Positions 26,287 through 38,223 of a stretch of DNA of 48,305 nt are shown here, piece after piece. The DNA is taken from contig JANNDT010000502.1 of assembly GCA_031387905.1 (NCBI GenBank), forward strand, positions 1-48,305, given 5' to 3'. How positions within the stretch are numbered: position 1 is the stretch's first letter; the number at the start of each line of letters is the position of its first letter. The stretch comes from Deltaproteobacteria bacterium. Its GTDB lineage: Bacteria; Myxococcota_A; UBA9160; UBA6930. Both the position numbers and the translations under genes were made by a program. The notes under the pieces were generated by a model that worked only from the letters and a program-made list of their open reading frames with translations, ran no database searches and was not told the origin of the DNA.

Positions 26287-26805
26287 GTGACTGCCGACGA
26301 GTTGAAAAGCCTGGTGCGCGACATCCCCGATTTCCCGAAGCGGGGCATCTTGTTTCGCGACGTCACGCCGCTCTTGCTGAACCCGAGCGCACTGCGCGCG
26401 GCAGTCGACGCGATCGCAGCGCCGTTCCGCGGCGCCGGCATCGAGCGCGTGCTCGGCATCGAGTCGCGCGGCTTCATCTTCGGCGCGCCCGTCGCGCTCG
26501 CACTCGGCGCGGGCTTCGCGCTCGTGCGCAAAGCGGGCAAGCTGCCGTTCGAAACTTTCGCCGCGAGCTATGCGCTCGAGTACGGCGAGGACCGCGTCGA
26601 GATGCACGTCGACGCCGTCGCGCGCGGCCAACGCGTGCTCGTGGTGGACGACCTGATCGCGACCGGCGGCACCGCCGCCGCCGCCGTGAGGCTCGCACGC
26701 ATGGCGGGCGGCGAAGTGGCGGGCGTGAGCTGCCTGATCGAACTCAGCGCGCTCGCCGGGGCGCATGCGCTCGACGTGCCGTGCCACGCGGTGCTGCGGT
26801 ACTGA
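26287..26805 (+). CDS. apt: Adenine phosphoribosyltransferase
   Basis: IPDFPKRGILFRDVTPLL, IESRGF, RKAGKLP, YALEYG, VDDLIATGGT. Confidence 0.96.
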   Translation: MTADELKSLVRDIPDFPKRGILFRDVTPLLLNPSALRAAVDAIAAPFRGAGIERVLGIESRGFIFGAPVALALGAGFALVRKAGKLPFETFAASYALEYGEDRVEMHVDAVARGQRVLVVDDLIATGGTAAAAVRLARMAGGEVAGVSCLIELSALAGAHALDVPCHAVLRY

Positions 26806-26841
26806 GCCGCGCGCGCATTCCTGTTGGCTTCGCCCGCTCGC

Positions 26842-26880
26842 GCGCCCGTAGCTCAGGCGGATAGAGCAGCGGTTACCTAA
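26842..26880 (+). tRNA. 5' half of a tRNA-Arg(CCT)-like gene, interrupted right after the anticodon loop (probably non-functional as encoded)
   Basis: GCGCCCG-TA-GCTC-AGGCGGATA-GAGC-A-GCGGT-TACCTAA; canonical D arm; A rather than T at position 33; no cognate 3' half seen. Confidence 0.8.
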
Positions 26881-27213
26881 TGAGATCGGGCGAGTCGGGC
26901 TTTAGCCTGCGATCTCGCGAACTTGTGAAGTGACGCGGCGTTAGGCTCCCACCAGCGTGGGCGCGGATGGTGCGCGATGGCGGGCTTCGGACAGATAGGG
27001 ATGTTGCGGGACGGGCACTTACCGATGCCTGTCTCGCGGTGACCGCGGCGCACGCTGTGCGTCAAAACGCTGCGGGTGGTGTGATTCCGTGGGCGGCGTA
27101 AAGCCAGAACGCCGAGCCCGCCAACGGATGTCGTGACAACTTCAGGTCCTCTCGACCGATGCCGCACGCGCTAGGGCAGAAGATGCGCCGATTGGCCGGC
27201 GAGGATCTCATAA
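26881..27213 (+). ncRNA. Putative large structured RNA inserted in the tRNA anticodon loop
   Basis: No credible ORF; terminal pairing ATGAGATC/GATCTCAT plus GGCGAGTCGG/CCGATTGGCC; internal hairpins at 27008-27035, 27049-27061, 27086-27128; flanked by TAA on both sides. Confidence 0.65.
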
Positions 27214-27247
27214 TCCCTCGGTCCCCGGTTCGATTCCGGGTGCCGTC
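27207..27247 (+). tRNA. tRNA 3'-half fragment of CAT-anticodon (Ile2/Met-like) type
   Basis: CTCATAA loop, TCCCT, variable CGGTC, perfect T arm CCCGG-TTCGATT-CCGGG; no CCA. Confidence 0.7.
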
Positions 27248-27437
27248 GCTCAATTTCCCCATCCCGTAGCCGACTGGCCCGACGGCCCGCGCCGCCGTCT
27301 ACGCGGTCTGCACTGGTGGCACTTGGCCCCCAGGCTGAGCCGCCGGACCGCGTCGAGTTGGTGCTGTGGGTTGAGATGCGCCGACCACCATCCGGGAATT
27401 ATTACTCCCGGCAGCGAGTTTGGTTGAGCAGGCGAAA

Positions 27438-29510
27438 ATGGCAGCAGAACTCTGGGCAGTTAGGCGTCGTGTTTTCGTGGTTATGCCCTTCGGCGATAAG
27501 CAGGTGCCTCGGAAGCCCCGCGTGGATCATTCCGTCGAGCCGGGCACGCAGGACGAGCCGCTCGAGGTCGATTTCAACGGCGTCTATCAACTCCTCTTCA
27601 AGCCCGCCCTCGAGGCCGCGGGCCTGCAGCCCTTTCGGGCCGACGACGAGGAAGCCGCCGGGGACATTCTCAAGGACATGTTCGCGGAGTTGGTCACCGC
27701 CGACTTCGTCCTCGCCGACATTTCGATTCTGAACGCGAACGTCTTTTATGAACTCGGTATCCGCCACACCGTCGGGCCGCGCGGCGTCATCTGCGTCCAC
27801 GCCGGCTGGGCCGATCGACCCTTCGACGTCGCGCCGGGCCGCGCCTTCAAATACGACGGCCAACTCTTCCAAGTCGGGGTCGCGCGTGACGACGCGTGGA
27901 AAGTGTTGGTCGAAGCCGAGGCCAAACGCCTCGGGGAAACGCTGCGCAAGGCGGTCTCCGCCGATCGGACCAATGAAGCCAGCCCCGTCTATGGCAATCT
28001 GCCTAAGCTCGTGCCGCCCGATGCCAGCCGTATCGAAACCGCACGCTTCAAACACTACCAGGCGCAGGCCGACGAGTGGAACCAACGGGTCATCATCGCG
28101 GGAAGGGACGGACGGGCCGAGGACATCTTGACTCTCGCCGGCGACGCGCCTTTGCCCTACTACCGCCGCAAGCTCCTGCGACAGTGCGGCGACGCGCTGC
28201 TCGCGCTCGGTCGCTTCGCGCAGTCGGAGCAGGTCTTCGGGGAATTAGCCAGCGACCTCGATGGCAGCGGTTCGGTCGAGGAGTTTCGCGTCAAATGCCA
28301 ACTCGCCCTGCTCGCGAACCGGCTCGGGCGCACACGGGAAGCGGAGCAAAAGCTCAGCGATCTCGCGAGGCAAATGCCCGGCGACACCGAGGCGCAGGGT
28401 CTCCTCGGTCGGGTTTACAAAGACATGTGGCGCACCGCTTGGGCGTCCGGCGCGACGCTCGAAGAACGTCTCGCACTCGCCTGGCGAAATGCGGCCGTGG
28501 CGCGCAAGTCCGTCGCTGCCTACGAGGTCGCCGTGCGACACAATCTCGCCAGCTATTTCAATGGCATCAACGTGATCACCCTCACCGCGTTGCTCGACCA
28601 CGCCGCGCGTGCGGCCAAGCGCATCGCGAAGCCTGACGTCGTCGACGTAGATGACATCAAGACAGTCGTGCGCGTCGCCGCGACCGCGAAGCTGGAAGAC
28701 AAAGAAGAAGGAGTCTGGGCCCGCGCCACGCTGGGCGAGTGGCACCTCGTCGGAGGGCATGCGCAGGAAGCGTTCGACGATTACGAACAGGCCACCGCGG
28801 ACCCGAGCCTGACCCAGTTCAATATCCGCTCGATGCTTGAACAGGTGCAGCTTTTCCAACTTCTCGGCCTCCACGCGAATTCGGTCGAACCGGTCGCCGC
28901 GTTGCTCATGCAAAAAACAAGCGAGATGCCCCAGCCGGGCGCGCGCTTCAACCGGATTGCGATTTGCAGCGGGCATATGATCGACGCGCCCGATCGCGAG
29001 ATGCCGCGCTTCCCCGCGGCGAAAGAGGAAGCCATTCGCTCCGAGATGGCGCAGCGCCTCGCGCATTGGAGCATCGGCCCCGGCGACGTTGCCATCTGCG
29101 GCGGCGCCTGCGGAGCGGACATCCTTTTCGCCGAAGAGTGCCTGCGCTGCGGCGCGCACCTCCGGCTGCTGCTCGCGCAGGATGTGGGGAGCTTCATCCG
29201 CGACTCCGTGCAGCACGGCGGGAACGACTGGGTGCAGCGCTTTCACGCGCTTCGCGAAAAGGCAGAAGTGGCAACCCAGCCCGATCGCCTCGGCAAAGCT
29301 CCGAACGATGTATCGATCTACGCGCGCACCAATCTCTGGATGAGCAACGCGACCCGCGTCGAAGCCGCCGACAGCTCCAAGATCCACGCGCTCCTCGTCT
29401 GGGACGAGAAGCCGACCGGCGACGGCCCCGGTGGCACCTCGGATTTTGAATCCAGAGTCCGCGGCCTGGGCGGCCTCATCGAAATCATCAACCCCACCAC
29501 CCTGCCGTGA
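27438..29510 (+). CDS. DRHyd-like (nucleoside deoxyribosyltransferase fold) + DUF4071/TRAF-binding TPR region + SLOG-like C-terminal domain
   Basis: VFVVMPFG..RAD..G.I..DMF.EL..AD.VLADISILNANVFYELGIRH; EAQGLLGRVYKD.W and YFNGIN; SGHMID..RFP..GGACGADILFAE..WD..GDGPGGT. Confidence 0.78.
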   Translation: MAAELWAVRRRVFVVMPFGDKQVPRKPRVDHSVEPGTQDEPLEVDFNGVYQLLFKPALEAAGLQPFRADDEEAAGDILKDMFAELVTADFVLADISILNANVFYELGIRHTVGPRGVICVHAGWADRPFDVAPGRAFKYDGQLFQVGVARDDAWKVLVEAEAKRLGETLRKAVSADRTNEASPVYGNLPKLVPPDASRIETARFKHYQAQADEWNQRVIIAGRDGRAEDILTLAGDAPLPYYRRKLLRQCGDALLALGRFAQSEQVFGELASDLDGSGSVEEFRVKCQLALLANRLGRTREAEQKLSDLARQMPGDTEAQGLLGRVYKDMWRTAWASGATLEERLALAWRNAAVARKSVAAYEVAVRHNLASYFNGINVITLTALLDHAARAAKRIAKPDVVDVDDIKTVVRVAATAKLEDKEEGVWARATLGEWHLVGGHAQEAFDDYEQATADPSLTQFNIRSMLEQVQLFQLLGLHANSVEPVAALLMQKTSEMPQPGARFNRIAICSGHMIDAPDREMPRFPAAKEEAIRSEMAQRLAHWSIGPGDVAICGGACGADILFAEECLRCGAHLRLLLAQDVGSFIRDSVQHGGNDWVQRFHALREKAEVATQPDRLGKAPNDVSIYARTNLWMSNATRVEAADSSKIHALLVWDEKPTGDGPGGTSDFESRVRGLGGLIEIINPTTLP

Positions 29511-29980
29511 CCATGTCCGAACCCGACTACCTCACCCGCCGACTCGACGCGCAAAAGGCGTGGCACTCGAAAAAGGCGATATCGAACAAGCTTTGGTATC
29601 TCGCGTTGGAGATCACCACCATGACTGCGGGCGCGTGCATCCCGATCATCAACGTGCTCCCGGCGGATGCCGGAGCGACCTGGCAGCGCGTCGGCTCCGC
29701 CATGCTTGCCGCAGTCGTGGTCTTCGCCGCGGGCATCAGCAAGCTCGACAAGCTCCAGGAAACCTGGCTGCGGTATCGCGCCATCGCTGAGAACCTCGAA
29801 CGCGAACGCGAGCTTTTCGTCGCGGGCCTCGGCGACTACAGCAACGCCGATGCGCAAAAGCGCCTCGCCGCGTTGGTCGATCGCGTCGAGTTACTCCTCG
29901 CCGATCAGACCGCACGGTTCCTCGCCAGCCAGCGCATCGCCCGCGAAGCGCCAGGCACGGCGGGCACGGAAACAGAGTAG
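29507..29980 (+). CDS. SLATT (DUF4231) two-TM effector
   Basis: YLTRRLDAQKAWH.KKA..NK, two TM helices, ETWLRYRAIAENLERE; GTGA coupling to upstream gene. Confidence 0.85.
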   Translation: MTMSEPDYLTRRLDAQKAWHSKKAISNKLWYLALEITTMTAGACIPIINVLPADAGATWQRVGSAMLAAVVVFAAGISKLDKLQETWLRYRAIAENLERERELFVAGLGDYSNADAQKRLAALVDRVELLLADQTARFLASQRIAREAPGTAGTETE

Positions 29981-36922: not shown

Positions 36923-37540
36923 CTAGGGCCGCTGCTCCCCGCAAGTCTTCCCCGCTTGAATGGCCGCCACCGTCAGCAGCCCGCAGCGTTGCTCTGCCGG
37001 CTTGGACGCGATCACCTGGATCAGCTTGGCATCGCTCACTCTTTGGGCTCGGCCGATCGTTCGGAGCGGGAAGCCTGCTTTGACGAACGCGATGGCGATC
37101 GCGACTTGGTCGGCCTCTGAGACCTCGCTTCCATAAGCGAGCGCGCTGGGTTTGCTGTCGATCAGTGGCGAGGTCCCAAGCTCGGATGTGAGCTGCAGCT
37201 CCTTCGCGACTCCTTGGACGAGGCTGCGATCAGATTCGCGGTAGAAGCGAAGGCGGATGCCAGCGAGATCTCGGTAGCGGGCGAGGTCTTCCTGCTTGAC
37301 GGCGATCTCCCGCTCGAGCTCTTGCTTGCGTGCTTCCAGGACATCGACCGCGCTCTCCGTCTTCATCAACTCAGCGCGCGAGTTCGCGACCTCTTGTCTG
37401 GACGAGGCCACTTCTTTGCGAAGCCCGTACGTCTGCCACGAGAAAAAGAAGAATGCGGCGAGCGGAGCCATGGTCGAGGCCCAAGCGATCGTGAGTAAAA
37501 TCTTCTGTCGTCGATCCAGGCTCTCTTGTGTGCCGAACAT
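36923..37540 (-). CDS. Hypothetical protein: N-terminal TM, coiled coil, small C-terminal alpha/beta domain
   Basis: GGAG RBS before ATG 37540, 12 nt after the TIR gene stop; ILLTIAW..AAFFFFSW TM; heptad EVASSRQEVANSRAEL..LERE. Confidence 0.72.
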   Translation of the reverse strand: MFGTQESLDRRQKILLTIAWASTMAPLAAFFFFSWQTYGLRKEVASSRQEVANSRAELMKTESAVDVLEARKQELEREIAVKQEDLARYRDLAGIRLRFYRESDRSLVQGVAKELQLTSELGTSPLIDSKPSALAYGSEVSEADQVAIAIAFVKAGFPLRTIGRAQRVSDAKLIQVIASKPAEQRCGLLTVAAIQAGKTCGEQRP

Positions 37541-37551
37541 CGATCGACTCC

Positions 37552-38223
37552 CTAGCGAAGGCGCTGCGTGTCGCGCGCAAAACAGAACAGAAGGAACGCG
37601 AACGCGGTGAACAGCATGCATCCCGGTAGCACCCAAAATGTCGCCGGCAACGCCGGGTAGCGAACCGGTGCGATCGCCGAGGCGACTGTTGCGACGAAGA
37701 GCAGCCCGACGATCAACAGGAGATGGAGCAGAACTCGGCTCACTTGCGTGCCCGCCGTTCCGGTGGGAGCGCTCAGCTGATCGAGCTTCCGGCAAAGCTC
37801 GTCCGCATCGCGGTTGAAGTAATTCCCATTGATCGGGTAGCCCTGCAGCCCTCGCAGAGAACGAGCCACGGCCGGGAGGTCGCTGCCTTCGAGCGACACC
37901 GCTGCATCGAAGAACACCGGGATGATTCGCTTGTTCATCGCAATCGCGAGCTCGATCTCGCGGCGAACCCAATCAGTTGGCTGATCGAGTCGCCGGTGCC
38001 CTCTGGCATCGGCCGCATCGAGCCAAGCAGGCCCGATCAACACGAGTACCACAGCACACTCGGCGATCGCGCTTCGAATCTCGTCGGAGAAGGTGTCCCC
38101 GAGAGCGATGTCTTCTCGGTCCTGGAAGACGGACTCGAACTGAAAGGCGTTGAGGCGCTCGACAATTCTGTCGGCGTAAGCGCCGGTGTCGTTTCTGCGG
38201 TAGCTGATGAAGATCTTCGCCAC
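37552..38223 (-). CDS. TIR domain (TIR_2) protein with two C-terminal TM helices
   Basis: KIFISYRRND, VFQD...I..GD.F, VVLVLIG..W, DWVRREIELA (catalytic Glu), IIPV; hydrophobic C-terminus. Confidence 0.92.
   Translation of the reverse strand: MAKIFISYRRNDTGAYADRIVERLNAFQFESVFQDREDIALGDTFSDEIRSAIAECAVVLVLIGPAWLDAADARGHRRLDQPTDWVRREIELAIAMNKRIIPVFFDAAVSLEGSDLPAVARSLRGLQGYPINGNYFNRDADELCRKLDQLSAPTGTAGTQVSRVLLHLLLIVGLLFVATVASAIAPVRYPALPATFWVLPGCMLFTAFAFLLFCFARDTQRLR

Follow-up and report, generated by a model that had tools for sequence, protein, structure and literature searches.

A DRHyd–TPR–SLOG fusion gene coupled to a SLATT gene as a candidate Thoeris-related cassette without its own TIR gene

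Main finding

On a complete 48.3-kb contig, referred to here as the window, of a deltaproteobacterial genome (~90% complete, 4.8 Mb, 68% GC), two overlapping genes, A and B, encode a 690-residue protein that joins a DRHyd-like head, an ASK1-type tetratricopeptide repeat (TPR) region and a YpsA-type SLOG domain, and a small SLATT membrane protein. Our preferred reading, to which we assign a probability of roughly 0.6, is that this pair is a Thoeris-related, horizontally acquired abortive-infection cassette that has no TIR gene of its own and would act through an NAD+-derived signal and membrane effectors. The observations on which this reading draws are the folds of the domains, the catalytic motif in the head, homology to proteins of TIR operons, the statistics of partner genes, the repertoire of domain fusions in the family, and the insertion at a broken tRNA gene. 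The component types are already known and were newly named in Thoeris types VII and VIII; what is new is their occurrence as a TIR-less fusion to SLOG accompanied by SLATT or patatin. In the literature as far as its text was accessible, a search found no experimental test of such a TIR-less SLOG fusion with SLATT or patatin, and the association itself is listed in the available part of one preprint (10.1101/2023.05.26.542521).

The gene pair

The two genes and the domains of gene A are arranged as follows.

27438–29510, + strand: gene A, ATG open reading frame (ORF) of 690 amino acids (aa), a fusion of a DRHyd-like head, an ASK1-type TPR-S region and a YpsA-type SLOG domain
27462–27962, + strand: DRHyd (nucleoside 2-deoxyribosyltransferase / MilB-like) domain, aa 9–175, assigned from fold and motif
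28029–28946, + strand: TPR-S / ASK1-type TPR region, aa ~198–503, assigned from Pfam TPR-S and VIA
28947–29507, + strand: SLOG domain (YpsA-like), aa 504–690, assigned from VIA, Atlas and conserved loops
29507–29980, + strand: gene B, GTG ORF of 157 aa, a single-domain SLATT_1/DUF4231 protein with two transmembrane (TM) segments

ORF calls reproduced exactly the coordinates and the GTGA coupling given in a preliminary description of this DNA. The GTG start of gene B shares 4 nt (GTGA) with the TGA stop of gene A (junction sequence CCGTGACCATG), and an in-frame ATG lies 6 nt downstream; for gene A, an alternative TTG start at 27420 would yield 696 aa. A zero-offset junction of this type recurs in 8 of the 13 SLATT-bearing loci described below. 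The codon-position GC of both genes has the pattern of real genes in a genome with 68% GC. When the contigs of four DNA runs were compared, one from a possible source sample spanned 26634–27842, and near-identical fragments of gene A are present in DNA runs of a second study. A promoter scan returned no promoter-like site, and a terminator scan returned one terminator-like site, which lies within the ABM gene; shuffled sequences gave more such sites.

Domains of genes A and B

An AlphaFold2 model of gene A, built with 38 homologues as input, had a mean predicted local distance difference test score (pLDDT) of 83.7. A whole-protein Foldseek search was dominated by TPR proteins, and the domains were read from VIA structure matches and from a separately modelled N-terminal domain. 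This head, modelled alone on 53 sequences (pLDDT 76.2), has the flavodoxin-like Rossmannoid fold of the type seen in nucleoside 2'-deoxyribosyltransferase (NDT), MilB and DNPH1, according to both VIA and Foldseek. VIA matches include 7o62_A (Z 10.2), 8rh3_A (9.8), 6evs_B (9.7) and MilB 4ohr_A (9.7), and the best five comprise three 2'-deoxyribosyltransferases, the CMP N-glycosidase MilB and an uncharacterised E. faecalis protein (7m5h) at Z 10.2–9.6; in Foldseek the best match was an NDT (2e-4), with MilB at 8.5e-4, and the nearest Atlas clusters are labelled 'nucleoside 2-deoxyribosyltransferase domain' (0.91). Between strand 4 and the following helix, within LNANVFYELG, the head carries the motif N99-x-N101-x3-E105, and the model places E105 at the start of that helix, as expected for a catalytic Glu. 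Residues N99, N101, E105, G107 and R109 are invariant across the 53 aligned sequences; E105, the glutamate of YELG, is also invariant in a 38-sequence alignment, and N99, N101 and E105 are likewise invariant when gene A is aligned with its relatives from TIR operons. By motif spacing, E105 would be the equivalent of E103 in MilB and of E86 in BcTpr, a Bacillus cereus protein introduced below. The fold and the invariant E105 bear out the N-terminal DRHyd-like domain with an intact YELG glutamate that had been proposed from the sequence.

The middle is the only part of gene A that was matched in Pfam (TPR-S, PF20308, 1.1e-13). The top VIA match of aa 210–503, and so the best structural match of the TPR region, was the central regulatory region of ASK1/MAP3K5 (5ulm_B; Z 18.3, 258 residues aligned, root-mean-square deviation (rmsd) 3.4), and a second ASK1 structure matched as well (8qgy_B, Z 16.1). 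Both the profile and the fold agree with the TPR middle of the preliminary description. The Pfam model MAP3K_TRAF_bd (PF13281) scored 10.7 bits on gene A, under its cut-off of 24.1, but several relatives do carry PF13281. A wider resemblance to ASK1 had also been suggested, and of this the TPR part stands, whereas an equivalence of the head to the thioredoxin-binding domain of ASK1 would be tentative: the TPR region alone matched ASK1 structures, and the link from the head consists only of an Atlas lead at 0.84 to a cluster carrying PF20309 (DRHyd-ASK). Gene A also has no kinase domain, whereas ASK1 is a kinase; one relative (P0208) has the architecture Pkinase-TPR-S-SLOG.

The tail has a YpsA-type fold, in keeping with the SLOG-like C-terminus that had been described. 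VIA aligned it with B. subtilis YpsA (2nx2_A; Z 14.8, 159 of 178 residues aligned, rmsd 3.2, 12% identity); DprA (3uqz, 4ljk) and ShosA (8zva) also matched, lower than YpsA, and Atlas placed the tail near YpsA SLOG clusters (0.87). It contains the conserved stretches SGHMxD, GGAxGAD and GxGGT(S)DF, which we take to resemble the hallmark loops of SLOG domains. YpsA itself is a stand-alone protein linked to cell division, whereas the SLOG of gene A is fused to other domains. The SLOG, SLATT and DRHyd families are said to have been defined in a 2015 article by Burroughs et al. in NAR.

Gene B matched Pfam DUF4231 (9e-17), Pfam SLATT_1 (7e-7) and NCBIfam SLATT_1 (5e-26, above the 41-bit cut-off), and hydropathy indicated two hydrophobic segments at ~aa 32–51 and 59–83. 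Profile and hydropathy thus both support the two-TM SLATT partner that had been read from the sequence.

Relatives in TIR operons

A tblastn search with gene A of 72,556 plasmids returned 92 records, none of them full-length at high identity. Most of these matches were proteins of 400–450 aa annotated as 'TRAFs-binding domain' proteins, which cover aa 13–387 of gene A at 26–33% identity (E down to 2e-34) and contain MAP3K_TRAF_bd and TPR-S in Pfam. They are found beside small TIR genes: with one TIR on Pseudomonas pA7J1, in the order TIR, TIR, TRAFs-binding protein, TIR on an Acinetobacter plasmid, with two TIRs and one DUF4231 protein on an E. coli IncP plasmid, and with TIR genes and one DUF4231 protein on an Agrobacterium plasmid.

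Anti-phage testing of TIR operons appears in the accessible text of two preprints (10.64898/2025.12.03.692087 and 10.1101/2023.05.26.542521). In the available part of the first, Yirmiya et al. describe type VIII Thoeris as a TIR protein plus ThsI, a 'CMP hydrolase' with TPR, and type VII as a TIR protein plus the SLATT protein ThsH, with rare operons holding both effectors; the TIR protein made canonical cyclic ADP-ribose (cADPR) in types VII and VIII, and cADPR in the medium stopped the growth of cells expressing either type (10.64898/2025.12.03.692087). The plasmid operons above correspond in layout to type VIII and, where DUF4231 is also present, to VII+VIII. The same text describes the SLOG domain of ThsA as reading 3'cADPR made by TIR and SLATT as a CBASS effector fold. 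In the available part of the second preprint, which concerns the B. cereus pair BcTir/BcTpr, the MilB-like head of BcTpr, not the TIR protein, makes a cADPR isomer and depletes NAD+, the substitutions N82A and E86A in BcTpr abolish isomer production and attenuate NAD+ degradation, and a survey of 78 assemblies mentions in passing five 'YspA-Tpr' and four 'Patatin-Tpr' (10.1101/2023.05.26.542521).

Judged by its sequence, gene A belongs to the ThsI/BcTpr type, with a predicted NAD+/nucleotide N-glycosidase head (putative catalytic Glu105) on an ASK1-type TPR region, plus SLOG. In common with ThsI and BcTpr, it has a MilB/CMP-hydrolase-like DRHyd head followed by TPRs of the TPR-S/MAP3K_TRAF_bd kind, a likeness drawn via the plasmid TIR-operon proteins of the same layout, and the N-x-N-x3-E spacing given for BcTpr in the accessible text is identical to that of N99/N101/E105. 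Gene A differs in that it is ~250 aa longer through the fused YpsA-type SLOG, that its operon is without TIR, and that its partners are SLATT and/or patatin. Gene B, like ThsH of type VII, is a SLATT/DUF4231 membrane protein beside a ThsI-like gene and shares the SLATT kind, but its architecture, as compared with the DUF4231 tandems on plasmids, differs. ThsA of type I Thoeris (SIR2-SLOG) resembles gene A in having a SLOG fused to an enzyme domain that consumes NAD+, a role predicted for the head of gene A, whereas this domain is SIR2 in ThsA and DRHyd in gene A, and gene A has a TPR region between enzyme and SLOG. The resemblance to CBASS, with its CapV patatin and 2TM/SLATT effectors, lies in two scanned patatin partners of the family, which match CBASS-type phospholipase effector models, and in SLATT as a shared kind; a scan of the 39 ORFs of the window and of neighbour ORFs at related loci revealed no CD-NTase/SMODS cyclase. 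A match to an already named system, which the preliminary description took as counting against its proposal, was found in part: DRHyd plus TPR is of the ThsI/BcTpr type and SLATT of the ThsH type, but TIR is absent from the operon and the SLOG fusion lies outside the named systems.

Recurrent partners

Of the candidates scored, 336 were homologues of gene A at E ≤ 1e-3; the full-length 690-aa layout persists down to 45% identity. The nearest (72–82% identity) come from metagenome-assembled genomes of Verrucomicrobiota (Chthoniobacterales) and from metagenomes, and Chthoniobacterales, Gammaproteobacteria and Thermoleophilaceae are among the sources that are named. This large family covers several phyla, mostly soil and sediment bacteria, with a patchy distribution. 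Gene neighbourhoods were compared in a set comprising the window, 9 genome loci and 80 metagenome loci, which are not all independent: L003–L007 are syntenic and several metagenome contigs are near-duplicates. Partners were counted in the 54 loci in which the A homologue is complete at its 3' end and is followed by 500 nt or more of sequence. In the available flanks, patatin is present in 30 of the 54, SLATT in 13 and both in 9. SLATT is confined to the clade at least 60% identical to gene A (13 of 18 loci) and always lies directly behind the gene; gene B has orthologues directly 3' of the A homologue in 12 further loci; patatin was found across all identity classes. Among the loci with long flanks, SLATT is the sole partner in the window and L001 only. 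All-against-all clustering of neighbour ORFs gave patatin and SLATT as the only families that recur in at least 6 loci. The commonest partner across the wider family is patatin, not SLATT, and the two patatin partners that were scanned match PADLOC models of CBASS-type phospholipase effectors (1e-42 and 1e-45). The homology to TIR operons, together with the recurrent patatin and SLATT partners, strengthens the reading as a nucleotide-centred conflict system, which the preliminary description had put forward.

The SLOG subfamily and its fusions

A profile of the tail, searched among 1.84 billion proteins, found 3590 representative proteins at E ≤ 1e-3, 2044 at 1e-10 and 275 at 1e-30. From 150 listed proteins, 42 were chosen for unusual length and scanned with Pfam, and 41 of the 42 hold the SLOG subfamily of gene A. 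Seven are SLOG-patatin fusions, among them direct fusions of ~565–595 aa (P0149, P0175, P0200, P0203, P0246, P0259), and in two (P0244, P0220) SLATT_1 precedes a C-terminal SLOG, one of them also with TPR-S. Further architectures include AAA-TIR-TPR-S-SLOG (P0194), the kinase fusion P0208 mentioned above, TPR-S-SLOG-sigma54 AAA+ (P0169), CbiA-TPR-S-SLOG, SLOG-TIR and many headless TPR-S-SLOG proteins. A stand-alone SLOG of the same subfamily is encoded among giant TIR proteins on a Sinorhizobium plasmid. Because such varied heads are joined to a shared TPR-S and SLOG, these two look like a constant core with exchangeable effector heads and partners. By the usual logic of conflict systems, sensing and regulation would fall to the core, with DRHyd, TIR, kinase, SLATT and patatin as outputs.

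How the cassette might work

What we infer beyond these observations is the defence role of the cassette, its trigger, its ligand and the direction in which the signal runs. In the preferred reading, an infection cue would turn on the TPR–SLOG core and the DRHyd head would cleave NAD+, such that NAD+ falls and a cADPR-type product forms. That product, or one of the same kind that comes from a nearby TIR protein and is read by SLOG, would drive the assembly of SLATT in the membrane, and SLATT would depolarise or kill the cell before the phage matures. In most relatives, a CapV-like patatin would fill the role of SLATT. The flow outlined in the preliminary description, with a TPR sensor in control of signal production and a membrane effector that responds to the signal, is a plausible version of this scheme. 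If the reading is true, the effector types of Thoeris VII and VIII also occur as TIR-less stand-alone cassettes welded to SLOG, and such a cassette would be a natural test case for whether TIR or DRHyd-TPR makes the cADPR-type signal. TPR-S plus SLOG would emerge from the family as a common sensor core that can be exchanged between patatin, SLATT, TIR and kinase partners, and the N-terminal regulatory region of ASK1, itself poorly understood, would gain a model in bacteria.

Several points weigh against this reading. The defining part of Thoeris is missing, as Pfam found no TIR gene in the A/B operon (39 window ORFs scanned), and PADLOC 2.0, the library of which is older than the names type VII and VIII, gave no significant system match (best E 0.001 for gene A and 0.035 for gene B). 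No Pfam DRHyd, Nuc_deoxyrib_tr or YpsA model matches gene A: for Nuc_deoxyrib_tr (PF05014) and DRHyd-ASK (PF20309) there was no match at E ≤ 1 with the whole protein or at E ≤ 0.05 with aa 1–175, and aa 501–690 had no Pfam match, YpsA included. Profile searches against PDB sequences gave nothing for the head and nothing relevant for SLOG, and the calls of the two outer domains therefore rest on fold and motif. For the head, TIR and receiver domains at Z 8–9.4 in VIA tie with the DRHyd matches. Gene B is a single SLATT_1 domain of 157 aa, in contrast to the ~290-aa SLATT_3+SLATT_1 tandems (DUF4231) in the TIR operons examined, and shares only short motifs with the DUF4231 proteins of those operons in BLASTP. 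Neither patatin nor SLATT is present in 20 of the 54 loci, many of which have short flanks. The other neighbours in the window are metabolic and gave no defence matches, and none of five unknown neighbours matched PADLOC. Finally, in their available text the two preprints conflict on the signal maker, which is TIR in one (10.64898/2025.12.03.692087) and BcTpr in the other (10.1101/2023.05.26.542521).

Source of the signal

Within the preferred reading, the signal could come from the cassette or from elsewhere. A tentative form is a fully self-contained, TIR-independent cADPR-type system, in which the DRHyd head would be the synthase, TPR–SLOG would read the protein's own product to set a threshold, and SLATT or patatin would execute the response. 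This form is suggested because it fits the structure of the cassette, the CapV-like partners and the data on BcTpr; we nevertheless hold it to be possible rather than probable. Were it true, TPR-S plus SLOG would be a widespread sensor core, present in thousands of representative proteins and taking DRHyd, TIR, kinase and SLATT heads, the N-terminal region of animal ASK1 would be a relic of a nucleotide-gated module, and a small-molecule link from SARM1-type TIR products to ASK1 would become testable.

An alternative that we likewise regard as possible, though doubtful, is that genes A and B make no signal and depend on a TIR protein elsewhere, which would sense the phage and make a cADPR-type signal; SLOG would read this signal and switch on the DRHyd NADase, and SLATT would respond in parallel. 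The window contains one candidate.

37552–38223, − strand: TIR_2 protein of 223 aa with two C-terminal TM helices (Pfam TIR_2 4.3e-18; PADLOC ThsB 3.9e-8; hydropathy)

This TIR-2TM gene is the sole TIR_2 gene in the window and lies 7.6 kb from gene B within the lowest-GC kilobase of the window (0.61), next to an ORF without match (36923–37549). The 4.8-Mb genome contains just one other TIR_2 match, and the chance that one of the two lies this near is 0.009 under a rough uniform model. Across the locus set, Pfam TIR_2 proteins occur in the available flanks of 10 of 61 loci including the window; at L019 a 166-aa TIR lies just upstream and at L083 a complete TIR plus ThsI-like pair is next door. 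A signal supplied in trans would also agree with the cADPR made by the TIR proteins of types VII and VIII, the growth block by added cADPR and the role of SLOG as signal reader in ThsA, all as given in the accessible text of 10.64898/2025.12.03.692087, and with the SLOG-patatin fusions, which resemble sensor-effector proteins, and the Sinorhizobium SLOG amid giant TIR proteins. On the other hand, six unrelated genes on both strands separate the TIR-2TM gene, itself on the opposite strand, from the pair, most A-patatin cassettes are without TIR in their available flanks, and a mobile cassette without a signal maker would often be useless. The TIR proteins near the loci also occupy varying positions and are of several builds (TIR-2TM, TIR-WD40, pentapeptide-TIR, small TIR). 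The idea that TIR is a constant third member of the cassette was rejected, as clustering gave no recurrent TIR family (none in at least 4 loci except WD40 giants). TIR genes are thus enriched nearby and yet are not a fixed component of the cassette.

That SLOG itself generates the signal is, in our view, improbable. Here the fused SLOG would be a LOG-like N-glycosidase that replaces TIR, and DRHyd-TPR, SLATT and patatin would all be effectors of its product. The operon logic would parallel that of TIR+ThsI+ThsH operons if SLOG is substituted for TIR; TIR, DRHyd and SLOG form one Rossmannoid clade whose members can be generators, sensors or effectors, according to the available parts of PMC9503650 and 10.64898/2026.10.19.760177; and the polar or glycine-rich loops of the tail are strongly conserved (SGH, D516, R520, R524, GGAxGAD, GG). 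The structural neighbours among the 50 matches listed are YpsA, DprA and ShosA, however, and not LOG enzymes, and the SLOG-patatin and SLATT-TPR-S-SLOG fusions suit a sensor role better.

A scheme without a diffusible signal, in which the ligand of TPR–SLOG is a phage protein or nucleic acid and SLATT is gated through direct protein contact, or in which the genes form a toxin-antitoxin-like pair or a non-defence regulator of stress or nucleotide pools, could appeal to the translational coupling of the two genes, to TPRs as protein-binding scaffolds (ASK1, the best structural neighbour, is regulated by protein partners), to the binding of DNA or nucleotides by YpsA and DprA relatives as indicated by structure titles, and to a window without a classical defence island, but appears very unlikely given the catalytic motif invariant in 53 sequences, the CapV- and SLATT-kind partners that answer to nucleotides in characterised systems as far as the available sources describe them, the patchy multi-phylum distribution and the defence-type neighbours in 10 loci.

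Genomic setting

The region immediately upstream of the pair contains the following features.

26841–26880, + strand: 5' half of tRNA-Arg(CCT), truncated within the anticodon loop; left boundary of the inserted DNA with the pair, with same-genus homology ending at 26880
26881–27437, + strand: non-coding stretch of 557 nt from the tRNA break to gene A, holding a repeated element and a degenerate tRNA-like piece
26984–27196, + strand: repeated element of ~210 nt, with three diverged copies (74–79% identity) on contigs C552, C499 and C151 and a conserved core
27187–27240, + strand: degenerate tRNA-like piece with D, anticodon (CAU) and T arms and no acceptor stem (Rfam tRNA 21 bits against a 29-bit threshold)

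The DNA at whose edge the pair lies interrupts a tRNA gene, and the pair most likely came by horizontal transfer, because no full-length homologue of gene A was found in the 40 relatives searched (8 of the same genus; weak partial matches in three), the closest homologues are from Verrucomicrobiota, synteny breaks within tRNA-Arg, and GC over the gene pair is 0.64–0.66 compared with 0.69–0.73 in the left flank. Same-genus genomes show synteny across the genes before the pair, which encode PCMT, a LysM-M23 peptidase and a phosphoribosyltransferase, and the tRNA-Arg(CCT) is intact in four of these genomes (G001, G004, G005, G008); beyond the pair, the right-hand side of the window consists mostly of metabolic genes. 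In the same assembly, the 1.8-kb contig C177 carries an intact tRNA-Arg(CCT) with flanks that are not syntenic; considered as a possible far end of the island, only its tRNA and 10–40 nt of flank match the relatives. ARAGORN found no tRNA in the 48-kb window, and Rfam gave nothing there at gathering score. A group I intron in tRNA-Arg(CCU) was rejected as an explanation of the break: there was no Rfam intron match at E ≤ 1, the window holds no 3' tRNA half, and the CAU piece cannot pair with the 5' half.

The preliminary description had placed an RNA of about 190 nt, inserted in a tRNA, ahead of the pair and had raised a possible link between the two. Insertion at a tRNA gene stood up, in the form of the broken tRNA-Arg, but what follows the break is 557 nt of unrelated sequence without an Rfam family. 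The suggested link found no support, as nothing similar to the stretch precedes any of the 89 related loci and its folding energy shows no excess (z −0.01). The segment 26984–27196 has the look of a repeat that belongs to the host or the island and not to the system. It matches no Rfam family, its copies on C552, C499 and C151 have no tRNA nearby, and it may represent either a small repeat or an RNA of undescribed type. The tRNA-like piece may be the remnant of an attachment site.

Other genes at related loci

Defence-type neighbours were detected with PADLOC in 10 related loci and include PDC-S05 (RhuM), PDC-S24/SoFic, a DRT-like reverse transcriptase, PDC-S03, Avs3a-TIR and others. At L015 (Rhizobium leguminosarum plasmid CP050566.1, 33.7–41.4 kb), the annotation divides a family member of full length into three coding sequences, so that the gene may be broken; DUF4231/SLATT, DUF3380, patatin and a second DRHyd-TPR (DUF4071) gene come after it, and a CAP12/Pycsar-type TIR protein is encoded upstream. 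In the 53%-identity clade, at L008 (6592–9806) and L009 (7491–9808), genes for an 871-aa protein, the N-terminus of which looks caspase-like by eye only, and a 200-aa protein precede the gene, neither with a Pfam or PADLOC match; a convergent patatin gene follows, and trypsin-endonuclease, lipase and metallopeptidase genes lie further upstream. At four loci of the 43–44% identity clade (L053, L055, L057, L089), a gene for a Gb3_synth-type glycosyltransferase lies just past patatin, with an FHA-domain gene too at all except L089. Genes for peptidoglycan hydrolases (GH25, GH46, glucosaminidase with PG_binding_1, DUF3380, GH108) recur beside family members, at L058, L091, L093, L094, L095 (upstream of the homologue), L015 (9191–12135) and L016, and may represent a further lysis-type partner or a prophage setting.

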